A stretch of 64,000 nt of DNA, taken from the sequence record OL856099. One strand, written 5' to 3'. The notes beneath the pieces are model-generated. The model was given only the letters and a program-made list of their open reading frames with translations, was not told where the DNA came from and made no database searches. Within the stretch, counting starts at the first letter, position 1. Each line of letters opens with the position of its first letter. A program made the translations under genes and the position numbers. Below, piece after piece: positions 1 through 34,502 of this stretch. The DNA is from Shigella phage CWP003.

Positions 1-327
1 AGGAATATGACGGTTGCTGTCATTATTTGGTTTAATAATGAGCATAAAAACGATTAGAAAGATGATGGCTGATATACTTAATTCAATCAGCGCGGCCTGA
101 GATATGGATTGATCTTCATGATACTGCTTTTGCATTTCTGCTTTCTTCTGAGCGCAAACTTCAGGCGATATATAATCGCCTTTTGAGTTGCCATAATAAA
201 TCTCGCCATTCTCAGAAATAAGTCTGCCGCAAATATCCGTTTCAGCCTTTGCGCTTGACATCATAATAACGGTGCCGATGATAGCCGCAATGGTCCAGAT
301 TAGCAGTTGCGATAAAGTGTTGTTCAT
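1..327 (-). CDS. Partial CDS (N-terminus in window, 3' end beyond window start); small membrane or secreted protein
   Basis: ATG at complement 327..325 preceded by AAAGAGG; open for 109 codons to the window edge by manual translation; hydrophobic N-terminal segment (LLIWTIAAIIGTVIMM) and a second hydrophobic stretch (AIIFLIVFMLII). Not in the ORF track because it has no stop in the window. Confidence 0.4.
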   Translation of the reverse strand, partial: MNNTLSQLLIWTIAAIIGTVIMMSSAKAETDICGRLISENGEIYYGNSKGDYISPEVCAQKKAEMQKQYHEDQSISQAALIELSISAIIFLIVFMLIIKPNNDSNRHIP

Positions 328-787: not shown

Positions 788-968
788 TTGTTTCTCTATT
801 TAGCAGGTATCTGCCGCGCATTCCACGAAGGCTGAACTCAACCGTCGATGGATTAGATTTTGAAAGCCACATCACTTGACCGTCGAACGGTCCGCCAACG
901 CATGTGTATTTGGCCTTTGGCTCACTCCTTTTGGGCCGCTTTGCCCGCTCTTTGATTGATAGTCTCAT
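747..968 (-). CDS. Hypothetical protein
   Basis: Track ORF in a leftward tandem with neighbours. Confidence 0.3.
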   Translation of the reverse strand: MRLSIKERAKRPKRSEPKAKYTCVGGPFDGQVMWLSKSNPSTVEFSLRGMRGRYLLNRETSGSTFVEWKENGE

Positions 969-1183
969 CAGTCTTCACCTTGAGATTCAAGACAAGTAAG
1001 AACAAGCCACGTCATCGGAAGAATCAAAACCAGAGAAATAAGTGACCAAATGGACCAACACAAGATGACAGACTTGAATGTGTGAACGTCGCCAAACGCA
1101 GCAGTGAAACAAAATCCCATTACGAAAGCAATCGCTGTGGAGTGATTATCAATGGCTTTGATGGCGCGGTCGATGAGTTTCAT
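968..1183 (-). CDS. Small membrane protein (two predicted TM helices)
   Basis: Track ORF; hydrophobic stretches AIAFVMGFCFTAAF and LISLVLILPMTWLVL. Confidence 0.4.
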   Translation of the reverse strand: MKLIDRAIKAIDNHSTAIAFVMGFCFTAAFGDVHTFKSVILCWSIWSLISLVLILPMTWLVLTCLESQGED

Positions 1184-2825: not shown

Positions 2826-3065
2826 TTAAAGCATTCCGTGCTGAAGGTCGAGCTTTCTTGCGGCAAACGACCTGGCACGGAATCGCTTACCCGCCCTTAC
2901 TGCCTGTCGAATTTTCTTTTGCAAACACTTACGGTCAAAATCGTTGCGGTCGACGGCTTCGAGTAAATCGCGACGCAGTGCACCCAGTGTCGACTTTTCG
3001 GAGACTTCAACGCCCAGCGCGGCTGCAACATCTTTCAAAACATCGAGTTCGGTTAAAGTTCTCAT
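2826..3065 (-). CDS. Small basic protein with SAP/Rho-N-like helix motif
   Basis: 79 aa; LTELDVLKDVAAALGVEVSEKSTLGALRRDLL resembles SAP/Rho_N; lysine/arginine-rich C-terminus; overlaps the upstream gene by 4 nt. Confidence 0.45.
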   Translation of the reverse strand: MRTLTELDVLKDVAAALGVEVSEKSTLGALRRDLLEAVDRNDFDRKCLQKKIRQAVRAGKRFRARSFAARKLDLQHGML

Positions 3066-3478
3066 TTGATAATCCCCTTGATGTCCGATTCTGCCATAAA
3101 GATTGGAGTGCTGCCGCCAGGAACAATCGAGCGCGTGACCTTGTCAAACATATCGTTTTCTTCAACTTGAATACGATAAAATTTATTTTTGGATGAAGAT
3201 GGGCACAATCCCATAAATTTGCCGATGCCGCGAACGCATTCATCTTCAAAGTATACTGTTTCACCTTGAATGGAGTCGATGTCGTCTACTGGATAGACCT
3301 TGCGACCCAATAGCCACTCATCCAAAGTCGCCTGCAAGACGTTGCGCGCATCTAAAATCCACGGGTCAATAGTAGCACCTTCATATCGCGCAGCAGTGGC
3401 CTTTGCCAGTTCTTCATATTCGCATACGTTAACGACTTCGCCGTTGTGCAAGACGACAAATACAATTGTTGTGCTCAT
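3062..3478 (-). CDS. Hypothetical protein, first gene of a convergent two-gene cassette
   Basis: 138 aa track ORF on the opposite strand to flanking terL and portal; no recognised motif. Confidence 0.45.
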   Translation of the reverse strand: MSTTIVFVVLHNGEVVNVCEYEELAKATAARYEGATIDPWILDARNVLQATLDEWLLGRKVYPVDDIDSIQGETVYFEDECVRGIGKFMGLCPSSSKNKFYRIQVEENDMFDKVTRSIVPGGSTPIFMAESDIKGIIK

Positions 3479-3573
3479 TTCAATCTCCTTTCGTTTGGTT
3501 AACTAAAATATAACTCAAAATGATACAAAAGCAAAATATTTTATGAACTATTTATGATCACCATACATATCAT

Positions 3574-3607: not shown

Positions 3608-6016
3608 TTGATTCCCTTTCACTGTCAGGTGGCGTTAACAATGAAAATTCTTGGCATAAAACTCTGGGAGAAGACGCAACCAGAAGCCGAACCAGCGGAG
3701 ATGCCGCCAGGCGACCCATTGGCACCGTTTGAACGCCTTGAAAGGCGCGGCAGCGGTCAACGCTGGGAAAAGACTGAAAGCAATCGACCGACCTTTAAAA
3801 CGGTTGATGACTTCCCTTTATATGAGCCTGATATTAATGGCGATGGTGTTGCAATCATAAAAGGTCGTTCAGTCGATTCCGCAACAGTATCCAAAAAGGT
3901 TATGGATAATGCCTTAAAGAACATCAGTTCAGAAGGGCAAGTAAACCCATACACAGTACCTATTCAACTTCAAAACTGGTATTTGTCACAGTCATTCATC
4001 GGCTATCAAGCTTGTGCCATCATCGCACAGCATTGGCTGGTGAACAAGGCGTGTTCCATGGTAGGCCGCGATGCGGTCCGTAAAGGTTGGGAAGTAAAAT
4101 CCAGTTCTGAGTCAGAATTGTCAGTACAGGCAAGCGAACGCCTAAAGCAAATTGATAAAGAATTTAATATCAAAGAGCACTTAGTTGAAGCCGAACGATT
4201 CAAAAATATTTTTGGTATCCGCGTCATCATATTTGATGTGCGTAGCGATGACCCAGAATATTACAGCAAGCCTTTTAACATTGATGGCGTGACAAAGGGG
4301 TCTTATAAGGGAATCATTCAGGTTGACCCTTATTGGATGATGCCGTTTCTGACGTCTGAAAACACAGCAGACCCTGCATCACAGCACTTCTATGACCCAG
4401 AATATTGGGTAATCAGCGGACAACGTTATCATCGCAGCCACCTCATAATCTTGCGCAACGATGAGCCAGCTGATATTCTCAAGCCGACTTATATTTACGG
4501 CGGCATTCCTCTGACTCAGCAGATTTATGAACGCATCTATGCCGCTGAACGTACCGCCAACGAAGCGCCATTGCTGGCGATGTCCAAGCGTACAACGACG
4601 CTGCGGACCGACGTTGACAAGGCTATTGCCAATGAGCGGTCTTTTGCAGAACGTCTGATGATGTGGATCAAGTACCGCGACAACTATGCAGTCAAAGTGC
4701 TTGGCCAAAAAGAAGAGATGGACCAGTTTGACATCAACTTGTCAGACTTCGACAGCATCATCATGAACCAGTACCAGCTTGTGGCCGCAATCGCAAAAGT
4801 TCCGTCGACCAAACTGCTTGGGACTTCGCCAAAAGGCTTTAACGCCACTGGTGAATTCGAGATGGTCAGCTATCACGAAGAGTTGGAAACGTGCCAGCAG
4901 CATGACCTGACAAAAATTCTCGACCGCCATTACAAAATCCTTCTCAAATCAGAAGGGGTGAATGTCGATGTTAAGGTTGCATGGGAACCAGTTGGCTCAC
5001 TTACTGCTACTCAACTTGCAGAAATCAATGATAAGCGAGCCAACACTGGCAAAACTCTTATTGATGCTGGCGTCATTTCTCCTGATGAAGAGCGCGACCG
5101 CATCAAAGACGACAAAAACAGCGGCTACAACCGTCTGCCGGAAGACGCAGCAGAAGAAACCCCAGGGATGTCTCCAGAGAATATGGCATTGCTTGGCAAG
5201 TCTGCTGGTGAAGTCCTGCAAGGTAAGGCCGATATTGAACAGGCGAAAGCTGATGTCGTTAAGATGGGCGGCCAGTTCTATAGCGAAACAGGTATTATGC
5301 CAGAGGGTGCCGCGCGTGGTGAGTTGGCGGAAAACCCTGACAAAGCGCCTGTCGAAATCAACATGGACGATACCGATGATGAATCAAGCCATCAGGTTGA
5401 TGTCCTAACGCAGTTGAAAGAAGGGCTGGAGGGTATTGCGGATTACTACCTGAAAGAAGGTCAGGATGTGGATTTTGACCCTCAAAAAGATTCACGGTCG
5501 GTGCAACCGTCTACCCTTCCAAGCGTTAAAGGACACGTCGTCAACTTACGCCACAACGTGGGTAAAATGGACGCAGCATCATTACCTAAGATGAAGTTGC
5601 ACGGAATGATTCTTGGCATTGAGAATCCGCGAAACAGCATTCGTAGAGGAAACAGCCTTGACGGTGAATGGGCCGTGAAGATGCCGCACCACTACGGATT
5701 CATCAAGGGCACCAAGGGCGCAGACGGTGATGAAGTCGACTGTTTTGTGGGTCCAAATCTTAAGTCGCCGAAAGTCTTTATCGTGAACCAAAACGATAAC
5801 TACTCTGGCGAGTTTGATGAACACAAGTGTATGCTTGGATTCGATTCAGCAGAAGAAGCGAAAGAAGCTTATCAAGCATCATTTGGTAACGGTTGGAACG
5901 GATTCGACTCAATCCACGAATTAGATGTGAACTCATTCAAGGAGTGGTTGAAGGGTGATTGCTCTCAAGCATACGGAGCACTCAATAATCCTACTAATTC
6001 ACCGAAGCAAGGTTGA
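3608..6016 (+). CDS. Portal protein
   Basis: About 790-800 aa; position directly after terL and before a Mu F-like gene. Track start is TTG; a likelier start is ATG 3641 (MKILG) with AGGTGG upstream. Confidence 0.7.
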   Translation: MIPFHCQVALTMKILGIKLWEKTQPEAEPAEMPPGDPLAPFERLERRGSGQRWEKTESNRPTFKTVDDFPLYEPDINGDGVAIIKGRSVDSATVSKKVMDNALKNISSEGQVNPYTVPIQLQNWYLSQSFIGYQACAIIAQHWLVNKACSMVGRDAVRKGWEVKSSSESELSVQASERLKQIDKEFNIKEHLVEAERFKNIFGIRVIIFDVRSDDPEYYSKPFNIDGVTKGSYKGIIQVDPYWMMPFLTSENTADPASQHFYDPEYWVISGQRYHRSHLIILRNDEPADILKPTYIYGGIPLTQQIYERIYAAERTANEAPLLAMSKRTTTLRTDVDKAIANERSFAERLMMWIKYRDNYAVKVLGQKEEMDQFDINLSDFDSIIMNQYQLVAAIAKVPSTKLLGTSPKGFNATGEFEMVSYHEELETCQQHDLTKILDRHYKILLKSEGVNVDVKVAWEPVGSLTATQLAEINDKRANTGKTLIDAGVISPDEERDRIKDDKNSGYNRLPEDAAEETPGMSPENMALLGKSAGEVLQGKADIEQAKADVVKMGGQFYSETGIMPEGAARGELAENPDKAPVEINMDDTDDESSHQVDVLTQLKEGLEGIADYYLKEGQDVDFDPQKDSRSVQPSTLPSVKGHVVNLRHNVGKMDAASLPKMKLHGMILGIENPRNSIRRGNSLDGEWAVKMPHHYGFIKGTKGADGDEVDCFVGPNLKSPKVFIVNQNDNYSGEFDEHKCMLGFDSAEEAKEAYQASFGNGWNGFDSIHELDVNSFKEWLKGDCSQAYGALNNPTNSPKQG

Positions 6017-6017
6017 T

Positions 6018-6869
6018 ATGGCTTTTAAAGCTTCGAAAAAACGTGAACGCCGCGCACCCGATAGAGTCGGGCGCGGCAGTCCGATAATCCCATCAAACGC
6101 TATTGCGATGGCCTACCGTCGTGAGATGAAAGGTCTTTGCTATGCGATGATTGATGACTATCAGGCAGGAATTTCAGAGTGGCTTGAAAAGAAGCAGGTG
6201 CAGAAGTTCTTTGCGCAAGACTCTGCTGATTCAACATTCCAAACTCTTATGAAACGTCTGCAGCTGAAATGGGCAAAGGCGTTTGCTCGTGTTGGGTCGA
6301 AGATTGCCGCTGATTTTATCAAGTCGGTTGAAAAGGGGGCTACTTCTGCTACATTCGCCAGCCTTAAGTCCGCAGGCATAGAAGCGCCAAAGGCCACATA
6401 TAACAAATTCGTTGAGAACACTCTTAGAACAAGCGAGACGTTTAACACGACTCTAGTGACTAAGGTCGGCGAGGATATTCACAACAGAGTGTACGAAGCA
6501 GTCATGCTTTCGCTGACTTCGCCCGACCCAGCCCAGCAAGGCACGTCAGGCATTCAGGCGGCGCTGCGAAACGTAAAACACTTCTCTGCAAAGAGAGTCG
6601 ACTTAATCGCTAAAGACCAGACAAGCAAATTGTATTGCGTTCTAAGCGATGAAAGGATGCGCCAGAATGGAGTTGAAGAATTTGAATGGGCGCACTCAGG
6701 AGCAGGAAAGGAGCCGCGAATCTCTCATGAACATGTCGACGGAATGAGATTCAAACTTGATGACAAGCGTCTATGGGAAGTGGGCGGAGAGTTGAAGTTC
6801 AAAAAGGGTGACATCGGTCCTCCTGGATGGGCGATACACTGCAAGTGCAGAAAAATACCAATCATTTGA
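6018..6869 (+). CDS. Head morphogenesis protein (Mu gpF / SPP1 gp7 family)
   Basis: Start taken at ATG 6018 just after the portal stop; C-terminal region (...GPPGWAIHCKCRKIPII) resembles the conserved F-like C-terminus; portal-adjacent position. Confidence 0.7.
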   Translation: MAFKASKKRERRAPDRVGRGSPIIPSNAIAMAYRREMKGLCYAMIDDYQAGISEWLEKKQVQKFFAQDSADSTFQTLMKRLQLKWAKAFARVGSKIAADFIKSVEKGATSATFASLKSAGIEAPKATYNKFVENTLRTSETFNTTLVTKVGEDIHNRVYEAVMLSLTSPDPAQQGTSGIQAALRNVKHFSAKRVDLIAKDQTSKLYCVLSDERMRQNGVEEFEWAHSGAGKEPRISHEHVDGMRFKLDDKRLWEVGGELKFKKGDIGPPGWAIHCKCRKIPII

Positions 6870-29269: not shown

Positions 29270-29914
29270 ATGATTAATGCAAACGTAATATCTAAAGGGA
29301 CCGGATGCAGCATGGATGTTGCAGAGAAATGGGTGGACCATTTCAAGCAGGCTTGTGAGCACTACGGAATCAAAAGCAAGAATGCCATCGCGGCATTCCT
29401 TGCAAACGTAGGAGTAGAGACGGGCAGCTTGAAGACCTTTGTGGAAAATCTCAACTACTCTGCTCAAGGTCTTGCCAATACATGGCCTAGTCGTTACAGC
29501 GTCAACGGTCGCTCTGGAAGTGCCCCGAACTCATTGGCCCTGTCGATTGCCCGTAAACCTGTGGAAATCGCCAATAATACATATGCAAACCGCATGGGCA
29601 ACGGTTCAGTAGCATCTGGCGACGGTTGGAAGTACCGTGGCCGTGGTGCCATTCAGCTGACTGGAAAGGCCAACTATGCGGAATATACGCGTCAATCAGG
29701 CTATGATGCATTGAACAATCCTGATATTCTGACTGAACCAAAATACATTGCTGACAGCGCGGCATGGTTCTTTAAGAATAGCGGCTGTATTCCTCTTGCG
29801 GATGCAGGAAATTTTGATTCAACCGTTAAGCGGATTAACGGGGCCGCGCCGAACGCAGCAAACCACGGCGAGTTGCGAAGAAAGCGTTACAAGGATGCAT
29901 TAGCAGTTATGTAA
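29270..29914 (+). CDS. Endolysin, glycoside hydrolase family 19-like lysozyme
   Basis: 214 aa; motifs FLANVGVETGSL, NLNYSAQGL, DGWKYRGRGAIQLTGKANY, SAAWFF match GH19 phage endolysins as recalled from memory (no search run). Confidence 0.8.
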   Translation: MINANVISKGTGCSMDVAEKWVDHFKQACEHYGIKSKNAIAAFLANVGVETGSLKTFVENLNYSAQGLANTWPSRYSVNGRSGSAPNSLALSIARKPVEIANNTYANRMGNGSVASGDGWKYRGRGAIQLTGKANYAEYTRQSGYDALNNPDILTEPKYIADSAAWFFKNSGCIPLADAGNFDSTVKRINGAAPNAANHGELRRKRYKDALAVM

Positions 29915-29915
29915 G

Positions 29916-29946
29916 AAAAAGGCCCATATGGGCCTTTGTTTATTTT
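29916..29946. terminator. Bidirectional intrinsic terminator (AAAAAGGCCCATATGGGCCTTTGTTTATTTT)
   Basis: Perfect 6-bp GC stem with 2-nt loop flanked by an A-run and a T-run; lies between convergent genes. Confidence 0.55.
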
Positions 29947-30170
29947 ACGGCTTCAACTTGGACGGGCGGAGCGGAACTTGTATCAATGTCTGGCAAGTCG
30001 AAGTAATACCCCGCCATACCAATTGCACCCACAATCGCGGCCCGTGCCACCTTGTTGCTAATTGACTCCCCAATAAGCTTTACCAACAGGGATAAGATTT
30101 GAGACGTCAAAGCCTTTTTCAGCCTTTTGTTTTCTTCCAAATCTTTCTGCATAACTACCACCCATGTCAA
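29940..30170 (-). CDS. Small membrane protein, holin-like candidate
   Basis: 76 aa; hydrophobic segment AAIVGAIGMAGYYF; convergent with the endolysin. Confidence 0.3.
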   Translation of the reverse strand: MTWVVVMQKDLEENKRLKKALTSQILSLLVKLIGESISNKVARAAIVGAIGMAGYYFDLPDIDTSSAPPVQVEAVK

Positions 30171-30709
30171 CGCACTTCCTGTGTCTTAACATTACCTGAA
30201 GCATCTCTCAAGGGCAGTGGATAGTAGGCCATTTGGTAGTCTGATACGCCTTCAATGTGATAAAACACGATTACGTCTTTGCTGTTGATGAGCATGTTAA
30301 CGACATCTGATTTATCTTCTGGAGTGAGTATTAGTGCGCCGCCTGTCCTGCTGTCTACTGCAACAGGGTATGTCTTGTCGACAAGGCCGCTGTCCAATGT
30401 ATTATACCTGACAACGATTTCAGGGGCATCAACTTTTGCCATTGACATTCCGAACACAAACGACACGACCTGCCGACCGCGATCATTCATTACGCACATC
30501 TTTTCTTTGTCAAATCTTTCTTTTATTACGTCGTATTTATTCCAGCAAAACTCAAATGACTGCCCATTGTTAAAATATCTTGTCAAAACTTTTGCACTTC
30601 CATTCGGCGGCGTAAACATATTTTCAGCCGATGCAGTCTTGGTGAAGAATATAACTGTCAGCATAGCCATGATGATGATCAAAACAATCTTTAATTTGTT
30701 CGCTTTCAT
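30167..30709 (-). CDS. Secreted or periplasmic protein with N-terminal signal peptide
   Basis: 180 aa; N-terminus MKANKLKIVLIIIMAMLTVIFFTKTASAEN fits a signal peptide with an A-x-A cleavage site. Confidence 0.5.
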   Translation of the reverse strand: MKANKLKIVLIIIMAMLTVIFFTKTASAENMFTPPNGSAKVLTRYFNNGQSFEFCWNKYDVIKERFDKEKMCVMNDRGRQVVSFVFGMSMAKVDAPEIVVRYNTLDSGLVDKTYPVAVDSRTGGALILTPEDKSDVVNMLINSKDVIVFYHIEGVSDYQMAYYPLPLRDASGNVKTQEVR

Positions 30710-30780: not shown

Positions 30781-30813
30781 AAATAAAAGAAAAGCCGGAA
30801 ATTTCCGGCTTTA
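30781..30813 (-). terminator. Intrinsic terminator after the ligase gene (AGCCGGAAATTTCCGGCT hairpin)
   Basis: Perfect hairpin; on the minus strand it is followed by a U-rich tract. Confidence 0.5.
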
Positions 30814-30884: not shown

Positions 30885-31862
30885 TTAAAAATACTCCATA
30901 TCGGTAATATCACGGAAGCACTTATACAAGGCAGAGCGCGGCACGTCAACTATGCCAAAGTTAAAGAATTTATATGTCAAATACTTGTTTCGATAATTCT
31001 CGCGATTCTCCCAAAGCATTTTTCTCTCTGCCATAGGCATTGAACCAGCGGAGACGCGGAAGGGAATCATTTCACCTTTCTCATCAACATATTTTGGATT
31101 GACAACCACAAATGATCCAAGGTATCCTTTTGCAACTAAGCCTTCAGCCTCTTTCGAACGCTTAGTGCGACCCAACTCATCAATGAATGCTTCGTTGTTA
31201 TTCTCCATCATCTCAACGAAGTCTATGATCAGTCCTTCTTCATCGGTCCACGGCTTGTCCTTCCACACATCACGTGACTTTGGCGTCGCGCGGCCATGCT
31301 TGTATTTGCCCGTCCAAGACTTGCCATACAAGCCTTCATAGCCAAGCTGGTCTGCTTCGATTTGCATCGCCGCGTACTGTTCCATATTTTCGATGTTTCG
31401 ATATTCGAGAGCGCGAAGGAATGGGCGTCGACCATGGTTGATGAGGTGCTGATTGACTTCAGCAACTCTAGCGCGATAGTTTGCATAACGCTTTTCAAAA
31501 GGCAAATCAGGGTCGCTGAAGTCATCAAACACCCACCATGTAAAGTTAGTGATTGCATCAGTGTTCATGCATGCAGTATAGGCCTGTTGCATGACGTTCT
31601 TGTCATTCGGATTACCGTCAATTAGCTCTCCATCAAGTCCGTGAATCAATTCACCCAAGAATAGGAACTCTTTTTTGATTTGAATGTTGCGCAGTGCCAT
31701 GCCGGATGTGCCCATTGGCAAGTTGTCATACGCCATCGCGCGTATTCCATCGACCTTGAAGGATAATCCGCAAGGCAGCGGCACATCTTCGCCGCGCTCG
31801 ATGATTTGTTTACGCTGGCAACCTTTCATTGGTTTTAATGCTTTGATTTCTCCTGCCATCAC
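30885..31862 (-). CDS. ATP-dependent DNA ligase
   Basis: 325 aa; nucleotidyltransferase motif I KVDGIRA (KxDGxR); size typical of phage ligases. Confidence 0.75.
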   Translation of the reverse strand: MMAGEIKALKPMKGCQRKQIIERGEDVPLPCGLSFKVDGIRAMAYDNLPMGTSGMALRNIQIKKEFLFLGELIHGLDGELIDGNPNDKNVMQQAYTACMNTDAITNFTWWVFDDFSDPDLPFEKRYANYRARVAEVNQHLINHGRRPFLRALEYRNIENMEQYAAMQIEADQLGYEGLYGKSWTGKYKHGRATPKSRDVWKDKPWTDEEGLIIDFVEMMENNNEAFIDELGRTKRSKEAEGLVAKGYLGSFVVVNPKYVDEKGEMIPFRVSAGSMPMAERKMLWENRENYRNKYLTYKFFNFGIVDVPRSALYKCFRDITDMEYF

Positions 31863-32452
31863 TCAAACTCCTTATTCATCACTTGTTCCAGCGCATAGGC
31901 ATAAGCCTGATCAGTCGATTTAATAAACGTTCCGTTGTACATCACACCTTTACGGTCCTTGATGTCTTCATAGGCGGCTTGAGCGCAATCAGACAGTCGA
32001 AGTCCATAATCATGCGCTACGCCGGAAAGATAATCGACTGCGGCCATGATAGTGACATCAATATCCATGCTTTGATTTTTAGCAATGGCGTCACCAAGCC
32101 GTCCGAGAGTCTTCGCCAAGCGAAGGATAAAGGAATGAGGGTGAGCGCCTTTGTCAGCGCAACCGCCTCCGTTGATGTCTTCGATTTTTGCACCATTTTG
32201 CGCGGCAAGAATAGTTAACACAACAAGGCAATCACCGATGTCGTCCTTGATTGCGGCTTGCAAATCACAAATGGCCTGCTCTGTATATCCGATTTCAGGG
32301 TCAAAGAACACAAGGTCATGGAGTTGATCCACGTGGTCGGTCAACTCCCCAAACTCGCTAATAAGCTTCGGGTATTGGTCTTTAAGGCCGCAACCTTTGA
32401 TGATGTTACGGTCAGAAGCCCATTGGCGAATGTTTGCATAAATCTGGTTCAT
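31859..32452 (-). CDS. mazG: MazG-like nucleotide pyrophosphohydrolase
   Basis: 197 aa all-helical protein; recalled similarity to phage MazG-family proteins; adjacent to ligase. Confidence 0.6.
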   Translation of the reverse strand: MNQIYANIRQWASDRNIIKGCGLKDQYPKLISEFGELTDHVDQLHDLVFFDPEIGYTEQAICDLQAAIKDDIGDCLVVLTILAAQNGAKIEDINGGGCADKGAHPHSFILRLAKTLGRLGDAIAKNQSMDIDVTIMAAVDYLSGVAHDYGLRLSDCAQAAYEDIKDRKGVMYNGTFIKSTDQAYAYALEQVMNKEFE

Positions 32453-32967
32453 TTATTTTCCTTTGATGCGTTGAATTGGTCGATTTTAATTTTAGCCTGA
32501 TTATAAGTATCAATCAAGCTATTAACTTTCTCTTTTAATCGGTTCGTTTCTGCGGCGAACTGAACAAGAAATCGGACATCCTCTTCTGATAGTCCACAGT
32601 TTCCTTCTGGGATAGAGAGGCGTCCAGTGGTCGCAGAGTAGGGCACACTCCTGAGTAATTCACGGGAACAGCTGAGTTGCTCGCGCAGCTTGATATTCCC
32701 AGACTTGTAACGAGCAATAGTGTCATCAGCAACCAGTTGCGCTTCCTGGCGACCCTTCTCATATGCCGATGCCGATTCAACCTGTAAAGATGCAATTTGC
32801 TCTTCGAGTGCATTTATCTTGTCCTTACGCTCATTAAGCGATGTCAGATATTGATTGTCCTTGGCCAGTGATGCGTTGGTTTGCTGAAGGTCTTCAACGT
32901 ATGATCCAGCGGCGAACGCGCCAACAAGGGCCAGAATCTTCAGTAGCGGTACAATTCTTTCTATCAT
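32449..32967 (-). CDS. i-spanin (Rz-like)
   Basis: 172 aa; N-terminal TM helix (IVPLLKILALVGAFAAGSYV) followed by coiled-coil; fully contains an out-of-frame lipoprotein ORF. Confidence 0.55.
   Translation of the reverse strand: MIERIVPLLKILALVGAFAAGSYVEDLQQTNASLAKDNQYLTSLNERKDKINALEEQIASLQVESASAYEKGRQEAQLVADDTIARYKSGNIKLREQLSCSRELLRSVPYSATTGRLSIPEGNCGLSEEDVRFLVQFAAETNRLKEKVNSLIDTYNQAKIKIDQFNASKENK
32535..32762 (-). CDS. o-spanin (Rz1-like) embedded in the +1 frame of the i-spanin
   Basis: Within track ORF 32535..32813; from internal Met: MRRVARKRNWLLMTLLLVTSLGISSC with a lipobox-like ISSC, then a short proline-containing mature region. Confidence 0.45.
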   Translation of the reverse strand: MRRVARKRNWLLMTLLLVTSLGISSCASNSAVPVNYSGVCPTLRPLDASLSQKETVDYQKRMSDFLFSSPQKRTD

Positions 32968-33024
32968 GATGCACCAGATAAATAAAAGGCCGCCAATCGG
33001 CAGCCTTGTTGATTTGATTGTCGA

Positions 33025-33885
33025 TTAAAACTCTTCTGCGTCGGTCGGAGTTTCATTGACAGGACCAGCGGCACCACTTGCTTCTTCCTGCTTGCTGCGG
33101 TCAATGTTAACGTTGCCGCCAACCACGTCGTTGTGGAATGCTTTGGCGACTTCGTACAGGCCTTTGTCCTGCACCAGACCTTCCAGCTCAAACTTCAGGA
33201 CGGACCAGGTGTTGCCGTCTTTGGACTGAGACGCAGTACCCATGCGAACGATGTTCATGAAGGTCGGCGGCGTTTTCAGGCCCTGCGGAGTCTGAACTTT
33301 CTTCTGCTGCAGAGCGGTCATCAGCATGCGAGACGGCTTGATCATGGAAGAAGTCAGAGACAGCATTGCACTACCAAATTCACCAGTTTCTTCGTTCAAC
33401 AGAATCACGAAGTGGTTACGTGTATCTGCGTAGTAAGGTGATTTCTTCTCGTGCACCTTGCCGTTTTCGTCTGGCACAAACACCTTACCGTTGATCTCAA
33501 CAGCGCGGCCTGCCGCGACTTCTGCATCAACGTGCTCTTTGGTGAATTCACCTTTAAAGCCTTTATCGTCGGACTCGCGACCGCCCCAAAGGATGAAGGT
33601 GCGTTTGAATGCGCAAGGGATGATCTGCACGCCCTTCTTGCCGTCATACAATTCACCAGTAACGGTGTTGTACAGCATACCAGCTTTTGCGCCAGGAACG
33701 TGTTTTGGATCATCTTCGTCGACCATCGGAGACATCTTTTGCAGTACGACGATAAAAGGAATGGCATAAGCGTCGGCATCGGCACCTTCAAAACCAGCGC
33801 CAAAATCGGTCATATCGACAAAATCAGCCATAGCGGACATCTGGGTGTTTTTTGCTGCAACTTCGGTAGTTTCTTTCTTAGACAT
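33025..33885 (-). CDS. Putative ssDNA-binding protein (T7 gp2.5-like architecture)
   Basis: 286 aa; acidic C-terminal tail ending in Phe (...ETPTDAEEF); sits in the replication operon. Architecture-based inference only. Confidence 0.35.
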   Translation of the reverse strand: MSKKETTEVAAKNTQMSAMADFVDMTDFGAGFEGADADAYAIPFIVVLQKMSPMVDEDDPKHVPGAKAGMLYNTVTGELYDGKKGVQIIPCAFKRTFILWGGRESDDKGFKGEFTKEHVDAEVAAGRAVEINGKVFVPDENGKVHEKKSPYYADTRNHFVILLNEETGEFGSAMLSLTSSMIKPSRMLMTALQQKKVQTPQGLKTPPTFMNIVRMGTASQSKDGNTWSVLKFELEGLVQDKGLYEVAKAFHNDVVGGNVNIDRSKQEEASGAAGPVNETPTDAEEF

Positions 33886-33944
33886 TTGGTGTTTTCCTAT
33901 AGTATCAAGTTTCGTGGCAACCTGATTTCAAGATAAAGGTTAAA

Positions 33945-34502
33945 TTACTTTTTGCTTTTAGGCAAGGTTATTTTAGCTTCTTTATACTCAAAAACGCTAA
34001 TATCTTCACTAACTGGATTACCCGCTTCCAGCTGTTCTTTAACAAATGACTTCAGTGTAGCAGAATGAACGCCTTGTTTCAACGTGGCTTCAACACCGTC
34101 TTCACGCAGCGCGGCAACAATCTCTTGCGCTTGCTCGATTTCTTCGCGACCGAACTCAGCCGTGACGCTGGACTTGATCAAGCCGCCGTAACCGTTGTTG
34201 ACGAGCCAATCGAATACCTTCAATTCATTTTCTTTCTTGATTGAAGCATTTACTTTTGACTCGACCTTGATTTTGGTCTTGTCTTCAAGCTTGATTTCGG
34301 ACACGCCAAGCTCATCCATGACGCCAGGAAGCAGAACAGTTTTGATTTCACTGATGCGCTGCTTTTGCATATCAGCTTCATCTTCAAGCTCTGTCAAAGC
34401 TTCTTGGCGTTCTGCCAATTCCGATACTAAGCGCGCAAGGCGCTCTTGAATGCTCTCAGGAGCGACCTGCGGCAAATCATCTTCCCAATTAATATTGCTC
34501 AT
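33945..34502 (-). CDS. Hypothetical acidic protein
   Basis: Track ORF; position in the replication/recombination block. Confidence 0.4.
   Translation of the reverse strand: MSNINWEDDLPQVAPESIQERLARLVSELAERQEALTELEDEADMQKQRISEIKTVLLPGVMDELGVSEIKLEDKTKIKVESKVNASIKKENELKVFDWLVNNGYGGLIKSSVTAEFGREEIEQAQEIVAALREDGVEATLKQGVHSATLKSFVKEQLEAGNPVSEDISVFEYKEAKITLPKSKK

Follow-up and report, generated by a model that had tools for sequence, protein, structure and literature searches.

Embedded Rz/Rz1-type spanin genes in the replication gene cluster of Wifcevirus

The spanin pair considered here is real and already catalogued; it is not new. Its closest described counterpart, that of phage ECML-117, was assigned to the embedded class ("emb") by Kongari et al. 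(2018, BMC Bioinformatics 19:326, Table S1), with an EIS of 172 aa and an EOS of 75 aa, the latter made up of a 25-aa signal and a 50-aa mature part. The same table gives the ECML-117 i-spanin a 24-aa N-terminal TMD region and a 148-aa periplasmic domain, and the supplement of that study adds a helix content of 62.8% and one coiled-coil region (Kongari et al., 2018). Two other described systems frame the problem. In T4, the spanin genes pseT.3 and pseT.2 are functional though they lie away from holin and endolysin (PMC6139136, Fig. 8 legend), and the Pbunavirus (PB1 family) phages were reported to carry a unimolecular u-spanin with an AWAC lipobox (Kongari et al., 2018). Annotation of the embedded pair is uneven. 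An i-spanin and an o-spanin are annotated in GenBank for Mansfield (MK903282) and for Bas98–101. The RefSeq record of Escherichia phage vB_EcoM_WFH (Wifcevirus), hereafter WFH, annotates the outer gene only and labels it "Rz-like spanin", the same gene being called "i-spanin" in Mansfield; the WFH RefSeq and GenBank entries and most other Wifcevirus records carry the outer gene alone, or both genes as "hypothetical protein". A literature search for papers joining "Wifcevirus" and "spanin" found none and turned up no experimental work on the pair or on the spanins of any Wifcevirus phage, and lysis genes are not discussed in the Mansfield announcement or the BASEL paper.

The DNA analyzed is a 64,000-nt stretch of Shigella phage CWP003 (OL856099), referred to below as the window; it is 100% identical to WFH over the 2.2 kb tested. 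Carried by the ORFs, TM helix, lipobox, homology and dual-frame constraint observed here, the main reading is that the two genes encode a functional two-component spanin of the lambda Rz/Rz1 type with embedded architecture, at a probability of about 0.93.

Two nested genes on the minus strand

An original prediction, made from the sequence letters, had described an outer type II membrane coiled-coil protein whose gene fully contains a +1-frame ORF, itself endowed with a signal peptide, a lipobox-like ISSC and a short proline-containing mature peptide, and had read the whole as an embedded two-component spanin. All of these elements are present where it had placed them (Table 1), and the spanin reading draws further support from conservation of both frames across genera and from homologues that reside in lysis cassettes.

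Table 1. Positions of the spanin genes, their signals and related loci in the window
Feature	Position	Strand	Basis or remark
MazG-like pyrophosphatase gene	31859..32452	(-)	phrog_1992, E 5e-63
i-spanin (Rz-like) gene	32449..32967	(-)	172 aa; phrog_1327 match and homology
o-spanin (Rz1-like) gene	32535..32813	(-)	embedded, +1 frame; longest ORF 92 aa
Lipobox I-S-S-C	32685..32696	(-)	codons 40–43 of the 92-aa ORF; regex and alignment
i-spanin N-terminal TM helix	32899..32955	(-)	codons 5–23, IVPLLKILALVGAFAAGSY
Terminator-like hairpin	32976..33007	(-)	AAGGCTGCCgattGGCGGCCTT then TTATTTATCT; best site of terminator scan
GH19-type endolysin gene	29270..29914	(+)	phrog_181 "endolysin", E 2.5e-70; Pfam Glyco_hydro_19, E 9.6e-8

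The product of the outer gene directly matches the PHROG family "Rz-like spanin" (phrog_1327, E 1e-26). Its N-terminal TM helix is the sole hydrophobic stretch of the protein, with a Kyte–Doolittle 19-residue maximum of 1.8, and the only segment to exceed 1.6. Directly after this helix comes an acidic YVEDL, in keeping with type II (N-in/C-out) topology, and the i-spanin is accordingly predicted to be a type II protein, most of it periplasmic. In a single-sequence AF2 model of moderate confidence, helices span residues 5–88, 94–107 and 128–170 (pLDDT 70–89), and a disordered, low-pLDDT linker occupies residues 108–127; the modeled layout runs from an N-terminal TMD through helix alpha1 and a flexible linker to helix alpha2. 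The predicted periplasmic portion bears two cysteines, Cys100 and Cys124, the former invariant in alignments with homologues. Assignment to the Rz family is by a chain of relatives. The Pfam scan of the WFH i-spanin returned no match to PF03245 (Phage_lysis, Rz lysis protein) at E<=1, and scans of both spanin proteins gave 0 matches in NCBIfam and likewise 0 in Pfam. A tblastn search with the outer protein, however, reached PY54-type Rz (E 4e-14 to 1e-13), a LIET2 Rz-like spanin (E 6e-12) and the Mica i-spanin (E 1e-6). Since PF03245 is matched by these LIET2, Mica and PY54 homologues (best E 6e-17) and not by the WFH protein, membership of the latter in the family is only transitive, as befits a divergent relative.

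The inner ORF lies wholly inside the outer one and begins 154 nt into it; as 154 mod 3 = 1, it is read in the +1 frame. Its 92-aa form, beginning MHSKSK as in GenBank, starts at the ATG at 32813, with an AAGGA Shine–Dalgarno sequence 8 nt upstream. An alternative ATG at 32762 yields the 75-aa form beginning MRRVARK, as given by Kongari et al. (2018); the mature lipoprotein comprises the same 50 aa with either start. The signal consists of a basic n-region, MRRVARKRNW, and a hydrophobic core, LLMTLLLVTSLG, followed by the lipobox, so that the protein reads ...MRRVARKRNWLLMTLLLVTSLG-ISS/C-ASNS... across the processing region, the slash preceding the cysteine that is the predicted site of lipidation and cleavage. 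This cysteine aligns with those of ISGC in LIET2, MSGC in Mica, ISGC in PY54 and VVGC in lambda Rz1. The mature peptide contains 4 prolines and one cysteine beyond the lipidated one, and this second cysteine is invariant in the homologue alignments. Its N-terminus is C-A-S. The Lol +2 rule is the established basis for inferring where a lipoprotein is sorted, and with Ala rather than Asp at the +2 position, delivery of the o-spanin to the outer membrane is predicted. In all six frames of the whole window, this is the only credible lipoprotein ORF.

Conservation and selection on both frames

Within the genus, the inner ORF is intact and retains its lipobox cysteine in 13/13 Wifcevirus genomes, where position -3 of the lipobox tolerates a change from I to M and the cysteine is invariant. 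WFH itself departs from the others at single residues, with Y109 in the i-spanin against D in all other Wifcevirus i-spanins, and V49 rather than A in the o-spanin. The comparison within Wifcevirus has 42 variable sites, and variability at codon position 3 falls from 0.177 outside to 0.105 inside the overlap, a trend in the expected direction with small numbers. Because these sequences are 96–100% identical, neither the intact inner ORF nor the substitution pattern within the genus is significant alone. A scan of IMG/VR added no diversity: it gave just four loci, all near-identical.

It is the distant homologues that answer the question of conservation. A homologous +1-frame lipoprotein ORF occupies the same relative position in Pantoea phage LIET2, Burkholderia phage Mica and Yersinia phage PY54, and its product shares with that of WFH the motif C..S...CP..PP.D..L.Q.ET.D(Y/F)Q..MS.FLF. 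Between WFH and PY54, the o-spanins are 55% identical (BLASTP E 5e-19), against about 29% in the Rz frame. Taking the overlap as the part that codes for the mature o-spanin, identity at the third codon position of Rz amounts to 51–66% inside and 25–34% outside across three distant comparisons: 33/50 versus 20/81 in one (Fisher test, p 3e-6), 27/53 versus 23/86 in another (p 0.0035), and 33/54 versus 31/92 in the remaining one (p 0.0011). Both frames are thus clearly under selection, as expected of dual coding, and the constraint is confined to the overlap. Conservation of the two frames and synonymous constraint in the overlap were among the checks that the original prediction had proposed. 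It had also named what would speak against it, namely an inner ORF that is not conserved or lacks a lipoprotein signal, or an outer replication-associated protein with no TM helix; instead, the inner ORF is conserved with its lipobox cysteine kept, and the outer protein combines a TM helix with homology to Rz.

Genomic setting and proposed function

The pair sits between a Pam3_gp34-like gene and MazG in a minus-strand cluster of replication and nucleotide-metabolism genes, with DNA ligase beyond MazG. Of the two neighbors originally named, MazG was borne out, but the "SSB-like" label of the upstream gene was not: Pfam matched its product only to the Pam3_Gp34 family, whose function is not assigned there (PF23977, E 4e-86), and no sequence relative was found in the PDB. 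The ATG of MazG shares 4 nt with the TGA of the i-spanin gene (ATGA), suggesting co-transcription and translational coupling of MazG with the spanin genes. On the other side, the Pam3_gp34-like gene is set off from the spanin–MazG–ligase block by a terminator-like hairpin, whose stem has 9 pairs, 6 of them GC, and stops 19 nt short of the i-spanin ATG. In WFH and Mansfield this hairpin bears a terminator annotation, and Pbunavirus LBL3 likewise has an annotated terminator at this position.

The partner lysis enzyme of the pair is the GH19 endolysin, which the annotations of WFH, Mansfield and Bas100 also call an endolysin. Its gene is the last of the tail operon and lies on the opposite strand, about 2.5 kb from the spanin genes, in agreement with the predicted placement away from the endolysin. 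No holin match in PHROG or Pfam was obtained among the small TM-containing ORFs of the window; small membrane ORFs are present at 968–1183(-), 29940–30152(-) and 30167–30709(-). The arrangement that is typical of spanin genes without defining them, adjoining holin and endolysin, is thus not the one found here; the unlinked spanin genes of T4 indicate that such adjacency is not a requirement. Placement of a spanin among DNA-replication genes is uncommon, with precedent.

Such a setting invites the suspicion that the outer gene codes for a coiled-coil membrane protein with a role in replication or in some other process than lysis, and that the inner ORF is open by chance and its lipobox a coincidence. 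The company of replication genes and the want of a direct Pfam or NCBIfam match for the WFH protein would both fit, as would the length of the inner ORF: when the outer gene was shuffled among synonymous codons, 7% of shuffles produced a +1-frame ORF of 92 codons or more, which makes the length alone unremarkable. The combination of signal and lipobox, however, appeared in only 0.06% of them. A fortuitous frame, moreover, sits poorly with an inner protein better conserved than the outer one between WFH and PY54, with a third-position constraint limited to the overlap, and with PF03245-matching homologues located in classical lysis cassettes. Dual-frame conservation across genera effectively refutes this reading, which appears hardly credible.

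A subtler possibility is that the pair, though truly homologous to spanins, has become vestigial or redundant, is poorly expressed, and leaves disruption of the outer membrane to a disruptin-like peptide or an unrecognized u-spanin. The strong terminator just upstream, the weak Shine–Dalgarno sequence of the i-spanin gene (GGT), an endolysin encoded on the other strand, and the u-spanin reported instead from the related Pbunavirus all lend it some color. A decaying gene pair would scarcely be expected, however, to remain intact and sequence-conserved in both frames in all 13 Wifcevirus genomes examined, or to bear the selection on both frames that the distant comparisons reveal, and no frame of the window offers another lipoprotein or u-spanin candidate, the search for a homologue of the Pbunavirus-type u-spanin or a comparable ORF having been negative throughout its 64 kb. 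Distance from the endolysin carries little weight either, the unlinked spanin genes of T4 being functional. Redundancy or decay is therefore judged very unlikely.

With a functional embedded spanin as the preferred reading, the following course may be proposed for localization, complex formation, membrane fusion and timing of expression. The outer gene would give rise to a type II inner-membrane i-spanin whose periplasmic part is a pair of long helices with a flexible linker between them. The inner gene would encode a prolipoprotein that is exported by Sec, lipidated at the lipobox and cleaved by signal peptidase II, after which Lol sorting would deposit the 50-aa o-spanin in the outer membrane. 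By analogy with lambda, the C-termini of the two proteins may bind each other across the periplasm, and disulfides formed by the cysteines in the periplasm may stabilize homodimers. The peptidoglycan mesh would restrain the complex until the GH19 endolysin degrades the wall, whereupon the complexes would collapse, the inner and outer membranes fuse, and lysis be completed. Given the intrinsic terminator directly ahead of the pair and the ATGA overlap with MazG, read-through of that terminator would probably supply modest amounts of the two proteins, either before the endolysin or independently of it. Early production would be harmless, since spanins are inert until the wall has been removed.

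Conceivably, the arrangement "Pam3_gp34-like, terminator, X, MazG" constitutes a conserved envelope or lysis slot of Wifcevirus and Pbunavirus, in which X has been replaced non-orthologously. In Pbunavirus LBL3, the syntenic position is held by ORF50, an unrelated 201-aa membrane protein with a coiled coil, two hydrophobic segments and a PHROG match of unassigned function; its match to GTA_holin_3TM is sub-threshold (E 0.018). If the idea held, X would be the embedded spanin pair in Wifcevirus and ORF50 in Pbunavirus, and a replication-phase transcription unit would pre-load the envelope with spanin complexes. Synteny, together with the non-homology of the spanin pair and ORF50, is what suggests such a slot, and the proposal is regarded as doubtful.

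The significance of the locus is mostly one of annotation. As most Wifcevirus records lack an o-spanin label, the gene should be added at the position given in Table 1, or from the start at 32762. Beyond this, the locus cleanly illustrates selection on both frames of an embedded spanin, as well as a spanin pair encoded apart from its endolysin, and for Wifcevirus engineering or studies of lysis timing it locates the genes for the outer-membrane step.

Comparison with known spanin systems

The u-spanin of Pbunavirus, a sister genus that shares its genome organization with Wifcevirus, has the same function, but is one protein combining a lipobox with a C-terminal TMD. T4 PseT.3/PseT.2 resembles the present pair in its unlinked placement; unlike it, the T4 system has the "separated" rather than the embedded architecture, and no sequence similarity to it was detected here. 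The likeness to lambda Rz/Rz1 is one of design: Rz1 likewise lies embedded in Rz in the +1 frame, the i-spanins agree in the TMD–helix–linker–helix layout and in having two periplasmic cysteines, and both o-spanins are short lipoproteins bearing one additional cysteine. Lambda Rz1 can be aligned under the pattern C...C.(K/P)..PP..(A/D)..(I/L)MQP..D(W/Y)Q, whereas its penta-proline stretch is absent from the mature o-spanin of WFH, which is less proline-rich (4/50). Similarity to lambda Rz is marginal: with an alignment of four i-spanin sequences, hhalign aligned the right motif at a probability of 17% and E 0.0014, a result set aside as too weak to serve as evidence of membership. Nor is the pair part of a cassette of the lambda S-R-Rz type.

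Far closer are the ORF63 Rz/Rz1 of PY54 and the i-spanin/o-spanin of Mica, the nearest relatives outside Wifcevirus in both frames. They share the embedded position and, in the o-spanin, the motif ...CP.LPP.D.SL.Q.ET.D(Y/F)Q..MS.FLF.S, but differ in setting, as the PY54 and Mica pairs come directly after holin and endolysin while that of WFH has the Pam3_gp34-like gene before it and MazG and DNA ligase after it. Closest of all are ECML-117, Mansfield and Bas98–101, members of the same genus in which the locus is orthologous and, in ECML-117, encodes an i-spanin of 99.4% identity. Differing from WFH at single residues (i-spanin 109 and o-spanin 49, as above), they agree with it in length, +1 embedding, ISS/C lipobox, 50-aa mature o-spanin and flanking genes.

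Architecture of the two overlapping genes

The 172-residue product of the outer gene carries a sole hydrophobic segment, residues 5-23 (IVPLLKILALVGAFAAGSY; Kyte-Doolittle 19-residue mean 1.8), after which comes an acidic stretch. In a single-sequence AlphaFold2 model (mean pLDDT 66; helices 70-89), helices span residues 5-88, 94-107 and 128-170 and a low-confidence linker occupies 108-127, and as modelled the protein matches the TMD-helix-linker-helix layout of Rz-type i-spanins. This agrees with the type II membrane coiled-coil protein of the original prediction. The inner ORF begins 154 nt into the outer one and therefore lies in the +1 frame, wholly embedded, just as had been described. 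Its layout, MHSKSKLHLYRLNRHRH-MRRVARKRNW-LLMTLLLVTSLG-ISS/C-ASNS..., comprises a basic n-region, a hydrophobic core, the expected ISSC lipobox and an Ala at +2, and the short proline-containing mature peptide that had been foreseen amounts to 50 residues with four prolines and one extra cysteine. The o-spanin start is ambiguous: the ATG at 32813 (92 aa) has a good AAGGA Shine-Dalgarno 8 nt upstream, while that at 32762 (75 aa) is without one at proper distance and gives a canonical 25-residue signal, as in homologues. The mature product is identical from both.

When the codons of the outer gene were shuffled synonymously 5000 times, an ATG-initiated +1-frame ORF of at least 92 codons arose in 7% of cases, so that ORF length by itself is insufficient; the signal-plus-lipobox pattern arose in only 0.06%. 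Searched across the 64 kb window in all six frames, the same pattern has three matches. Since the other two, an off-frame ORF within the helicase gene and a cytoplasmic enzyme's Rossmann motif, GGGLAGLITAC, are not credible, the embedded ORF is the only credible lipoprotein gene there.

Coordinates of the features discussed (window positions unless marked)
Feature	Position	Strand	Remarks
i-spanin (Rz-type) gene	32449..32967	-	
o-spanin (Rz1-type) ORF	32535..32813	-	
Strong terminator-like hairpin	33007..32986	-	T-tract to ~32976; ends 19 nt before i-spanin ATG
Second terminator-like hairpin	30812..30791	-	after ligase
Pam3_Gp34 protein	33025-33885	-	upstream of spanin pair
Pam3 gp33-like protein (DUF7307)	33945-34502	-	orthologue of LBL3 ORF52
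GH19 endolysin	29270..29914	+	last gene of tail operon; convergent with spanin block
70-aa protein	29940-30152	-	one weakly hydrophobic segment; phrog_5165
180-aa protein	30167-30709	-	N-terminal signal or anchor (MKANKLKIVLIIIMAMLTVIFF...ASA); no family match
71-aa small ORF	968-1183	-	strongly hydrophobic; two-TMD-like profile
109-aa ORF	~1-327	-	strongly hydrophobic; signal-like N-terminus, C-terminal TM segment
LBL3 ORF50	4108-4713 (LBL3 locus)	-	201 aa; syntenic with window 32449-32967
LBL3 ORF52	5755-6375 (LBL3 locus)	-	size and position of JJ01 'U-spanin'

Family membership and constraint on both frames

Window positions 31800-34000 (2.2 kb) are 100% identical to Escherichia phage vB_EcoM_WFH (Wifcevirus WFH; MK373776, NC_048194) and 93-98% identical to ~25 further genomes of Wifcevirus, a group of PB1-like myoviruses infecting E. 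coli. The outer protein matches phrog_1327 'Rz-like spanin' in PHROGs (E 1e-26) and has no match to Pfam PF03245 (Rz) at E<=1. A tblastn search of phage genomes recovered four groups of relatives beyond Wifcevirus: Rz of Yersinia phages P840 and PY54 (E 4e-14 and 1e-13; 29% identity), Rz-like spanins of Pantoea phages LIET2 and Nafs113 (6e-12 and 1e-11), the i-spanin of Burkholderia phage Mica (1e-6), and a Serratia phage MQ-4 match without annotation in its record (1e-6). In PY54 and Mica, the homologue stands immediately after the holin and endolysin genes. Set directly against lambda Rz, the profile scores poorly (probability 17%), with the conserved G-x-x-R-L...C motif still aligned. Although the WFH protein itself escapes PF03245, its LIET2, Mica and PY54 homologues do match (best E 6e-17) and phrog_1327 is hit directly; on these sequence comparisons it is therefore a divergent Rz-family relative, which PHROGs recognises directly and Pfam only by way of the homologues.

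The 92-codon inner ORF, its lipobox Cys and all three possible ATG starts are kept in 13/13 Wifcevirus genomes, a comparison of little power because these are 96-100% identical. Farther afield, LIET2, Mica and PY54 each have a corresponding +1-frame ORF, identically placed relative to the outer gene, that encodes a signal peptide and a lipobox (ISGC, MSGC and ISGC, respectively), and their mature parts share with WFH the motif C..S...CP..PP.D..L.Q.ET.D(Y/F)Q..MS.FLF. Between WFH and PY54 the o-spanins share 55% identity across 55 residues (BLASTP E 5e-19), versus ~29% for the i-spanins. In outer-frame codon alignments, third-position identity to WFH was higher inside than outside the mature-o-spanin overlap (one-sided Fisher): 33/50 versus 20/81 for LIET2 (p 3e-6), 27/53 versus 23/86 for Mica (p 0.0035) and 33/54 versus 31/92 for PY54 (p 0.0011). 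As Rz position 3 is Rz1 position 2, raised identity within the overlap is the expected signature of second-frame selection, and we read the pattern, from alignment, as that signature on the Rz1 frame. Conservation thus extends to both frames, and with the phrog_1327 match and the lysis-cassette homologues it makes the embedded spanin-pair reading the right one.

In one Wifcevirus subgroup (phage WFC, at 3001-3520 of its sequence, and also Eco4M-7, F13 and SP13), a 1-nt indel close to the 3' terminus of the outer gene yields a 170-aa i-spanin ending ...NASKEK in place of ...NASKENK. Bas99 and AV128 retain the 172-aa form; independently of this, their MazG gene is longer, 624 bp versus 594 bp.

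Genomic setting and the corresponding Pbunavirus slot

The pair belongs to a co-directional minus-strand run encoding DNA polymerase III alpha, two helicases, Pam3 gp33-like and gp34-like proteins, the spanins, a MazG-like pyrophosphatase and an ATP-dependent DNA ligase. An ATGA overlap joins the i-spanin stop to the MazG start, and a stop-start overlap likewise links MazG to the ligase. Of the location originally predicted, between SSB-like and MazG genes rather than next to the endolysin, the MazG neighbor and the distance from the endolysin (~2.5 kb) stand; for the other neighbor, an SSB function is neither supported nor refuted by any tool. That protein falls into Pfam Pam3_Gp34 and phrog_2402, both unknown-function families, and no PDB sequence relative was found for it. 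Its acidic C-terminus (...ETPTDAEEF; ...ATEAEEF in the orthologue of Pseudomonas phage LBL3, of the sister genus Pbunavirus) is SSB-tail-like in resemblance only. Both hairpins carry terminator annotation in WFH and Mansfield. Because the first lies so close upstream and a scan of the interval to the i-spanin ATG revealed no promoter-like site, spanin-MazG-ligase transcription probably depends on read-through.

Between endolysin and ligase lie the genes for the 70-aa and 180-aa proteins, neither of which carries a functional annotation. The positional counterpart of the former is LBL3 ORF47, which adjoins the endolysin and has no significant similarity by tblastn. As no holin is annotated within the 50 kb of the Wifcevirus phage Bas100 that were checked, both products are putative envelope or lysis candidates. 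The 71-aa and 109-aa ORFs, which have no PHROG match, could likewise be holins or other membrane proteins.

In LBL3, no spanin gene separates the orthologues of the gp34-like protein (56% identity) and MazG; the slot between them is taken by ORF50. ORF50 combines a coiled coil with a Gly/Ala-rich N-terminus and two hydrophobic segments at its C-terminal side; its only family hints are GTA_holin_3TM (E 0.018, sub-threshold) and the unknown-function phrog_1544, and no homologue was found in the window. Ahead of ORF50, LBL3 likewise has an annotated terminator in the equivalent position. This suggests a replaceable envelope-gene slot, at which ORF50 and the spanin pair may represent non-orthologous replacement; its occupation by an unrelated membrane protein in Pbunavirus is the one mildly new observation here. 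A paper on the Pbunavirus phage JJ01 assigned a 'U-spanin', via PHASTER, to the 621-bp gene that comes immediately after that for the SNF2 helicase (PMC9583000). Since neither LBL3 ORF52 nor its WFH counterpart has a lipobox or TMD, and the 10 kb LBL3 locus contains no AWAC motif in any frame, that label looks like a mis-annotation.

Earlier records and known spanin systems

The embedded pair is real but already known. Exactly this pair was catalogued in Wifcevirus phage ECML-117 (Kongari et al., 2018; PMC6139136), with architecture 'emb', an i-spanin of 172 aa (TMD region 24 aa, periplasmic domain 148 aa) and an o-spanin of 75 aa from MRRVARKRNW (signal 25 aa, mature peptide 50 aa), each listed as a singleton family. 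ECML-117 is 96.8% identical in DNA, and its i-spanin 99.4% identical. GenBank annotates both genes, as i-spanin and o-spanin, for Mansfield (2019) and BASEL phages Bas98-101. The WFH records (NC_048194 / MK373776) lack the o-spanin, the outer gene alone being annotated there, as 'Rz-like spanin' (RefSeq) or hypothetical, and many other Wifcevirus records call both 'hypothetical protein'.

Every step of the likely mechanism is borrowed from the established lambda model. The i-spanin would insert into the inner membrane; the o-spanin would acquire its lipid at the Cys, lose its signal to signal peptidase II and, given Ala at +2, be directed by Lol to the outer membrane. The two would bind via their C-termini across the periplasm, with disulfides stabilising homodimers (available cysteines are i-spanin Cys100 and Cys124 and one in the mature o-spanin), and once endolysin had removed the peptidoglycan the complexes would fuse both membranes. 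In the unlinking of spanin genes from the endolysin, the window resembles T4, whose pseT.3/pseT.2 spanin genes lie apart from holin and endolysin (PMC6139136).
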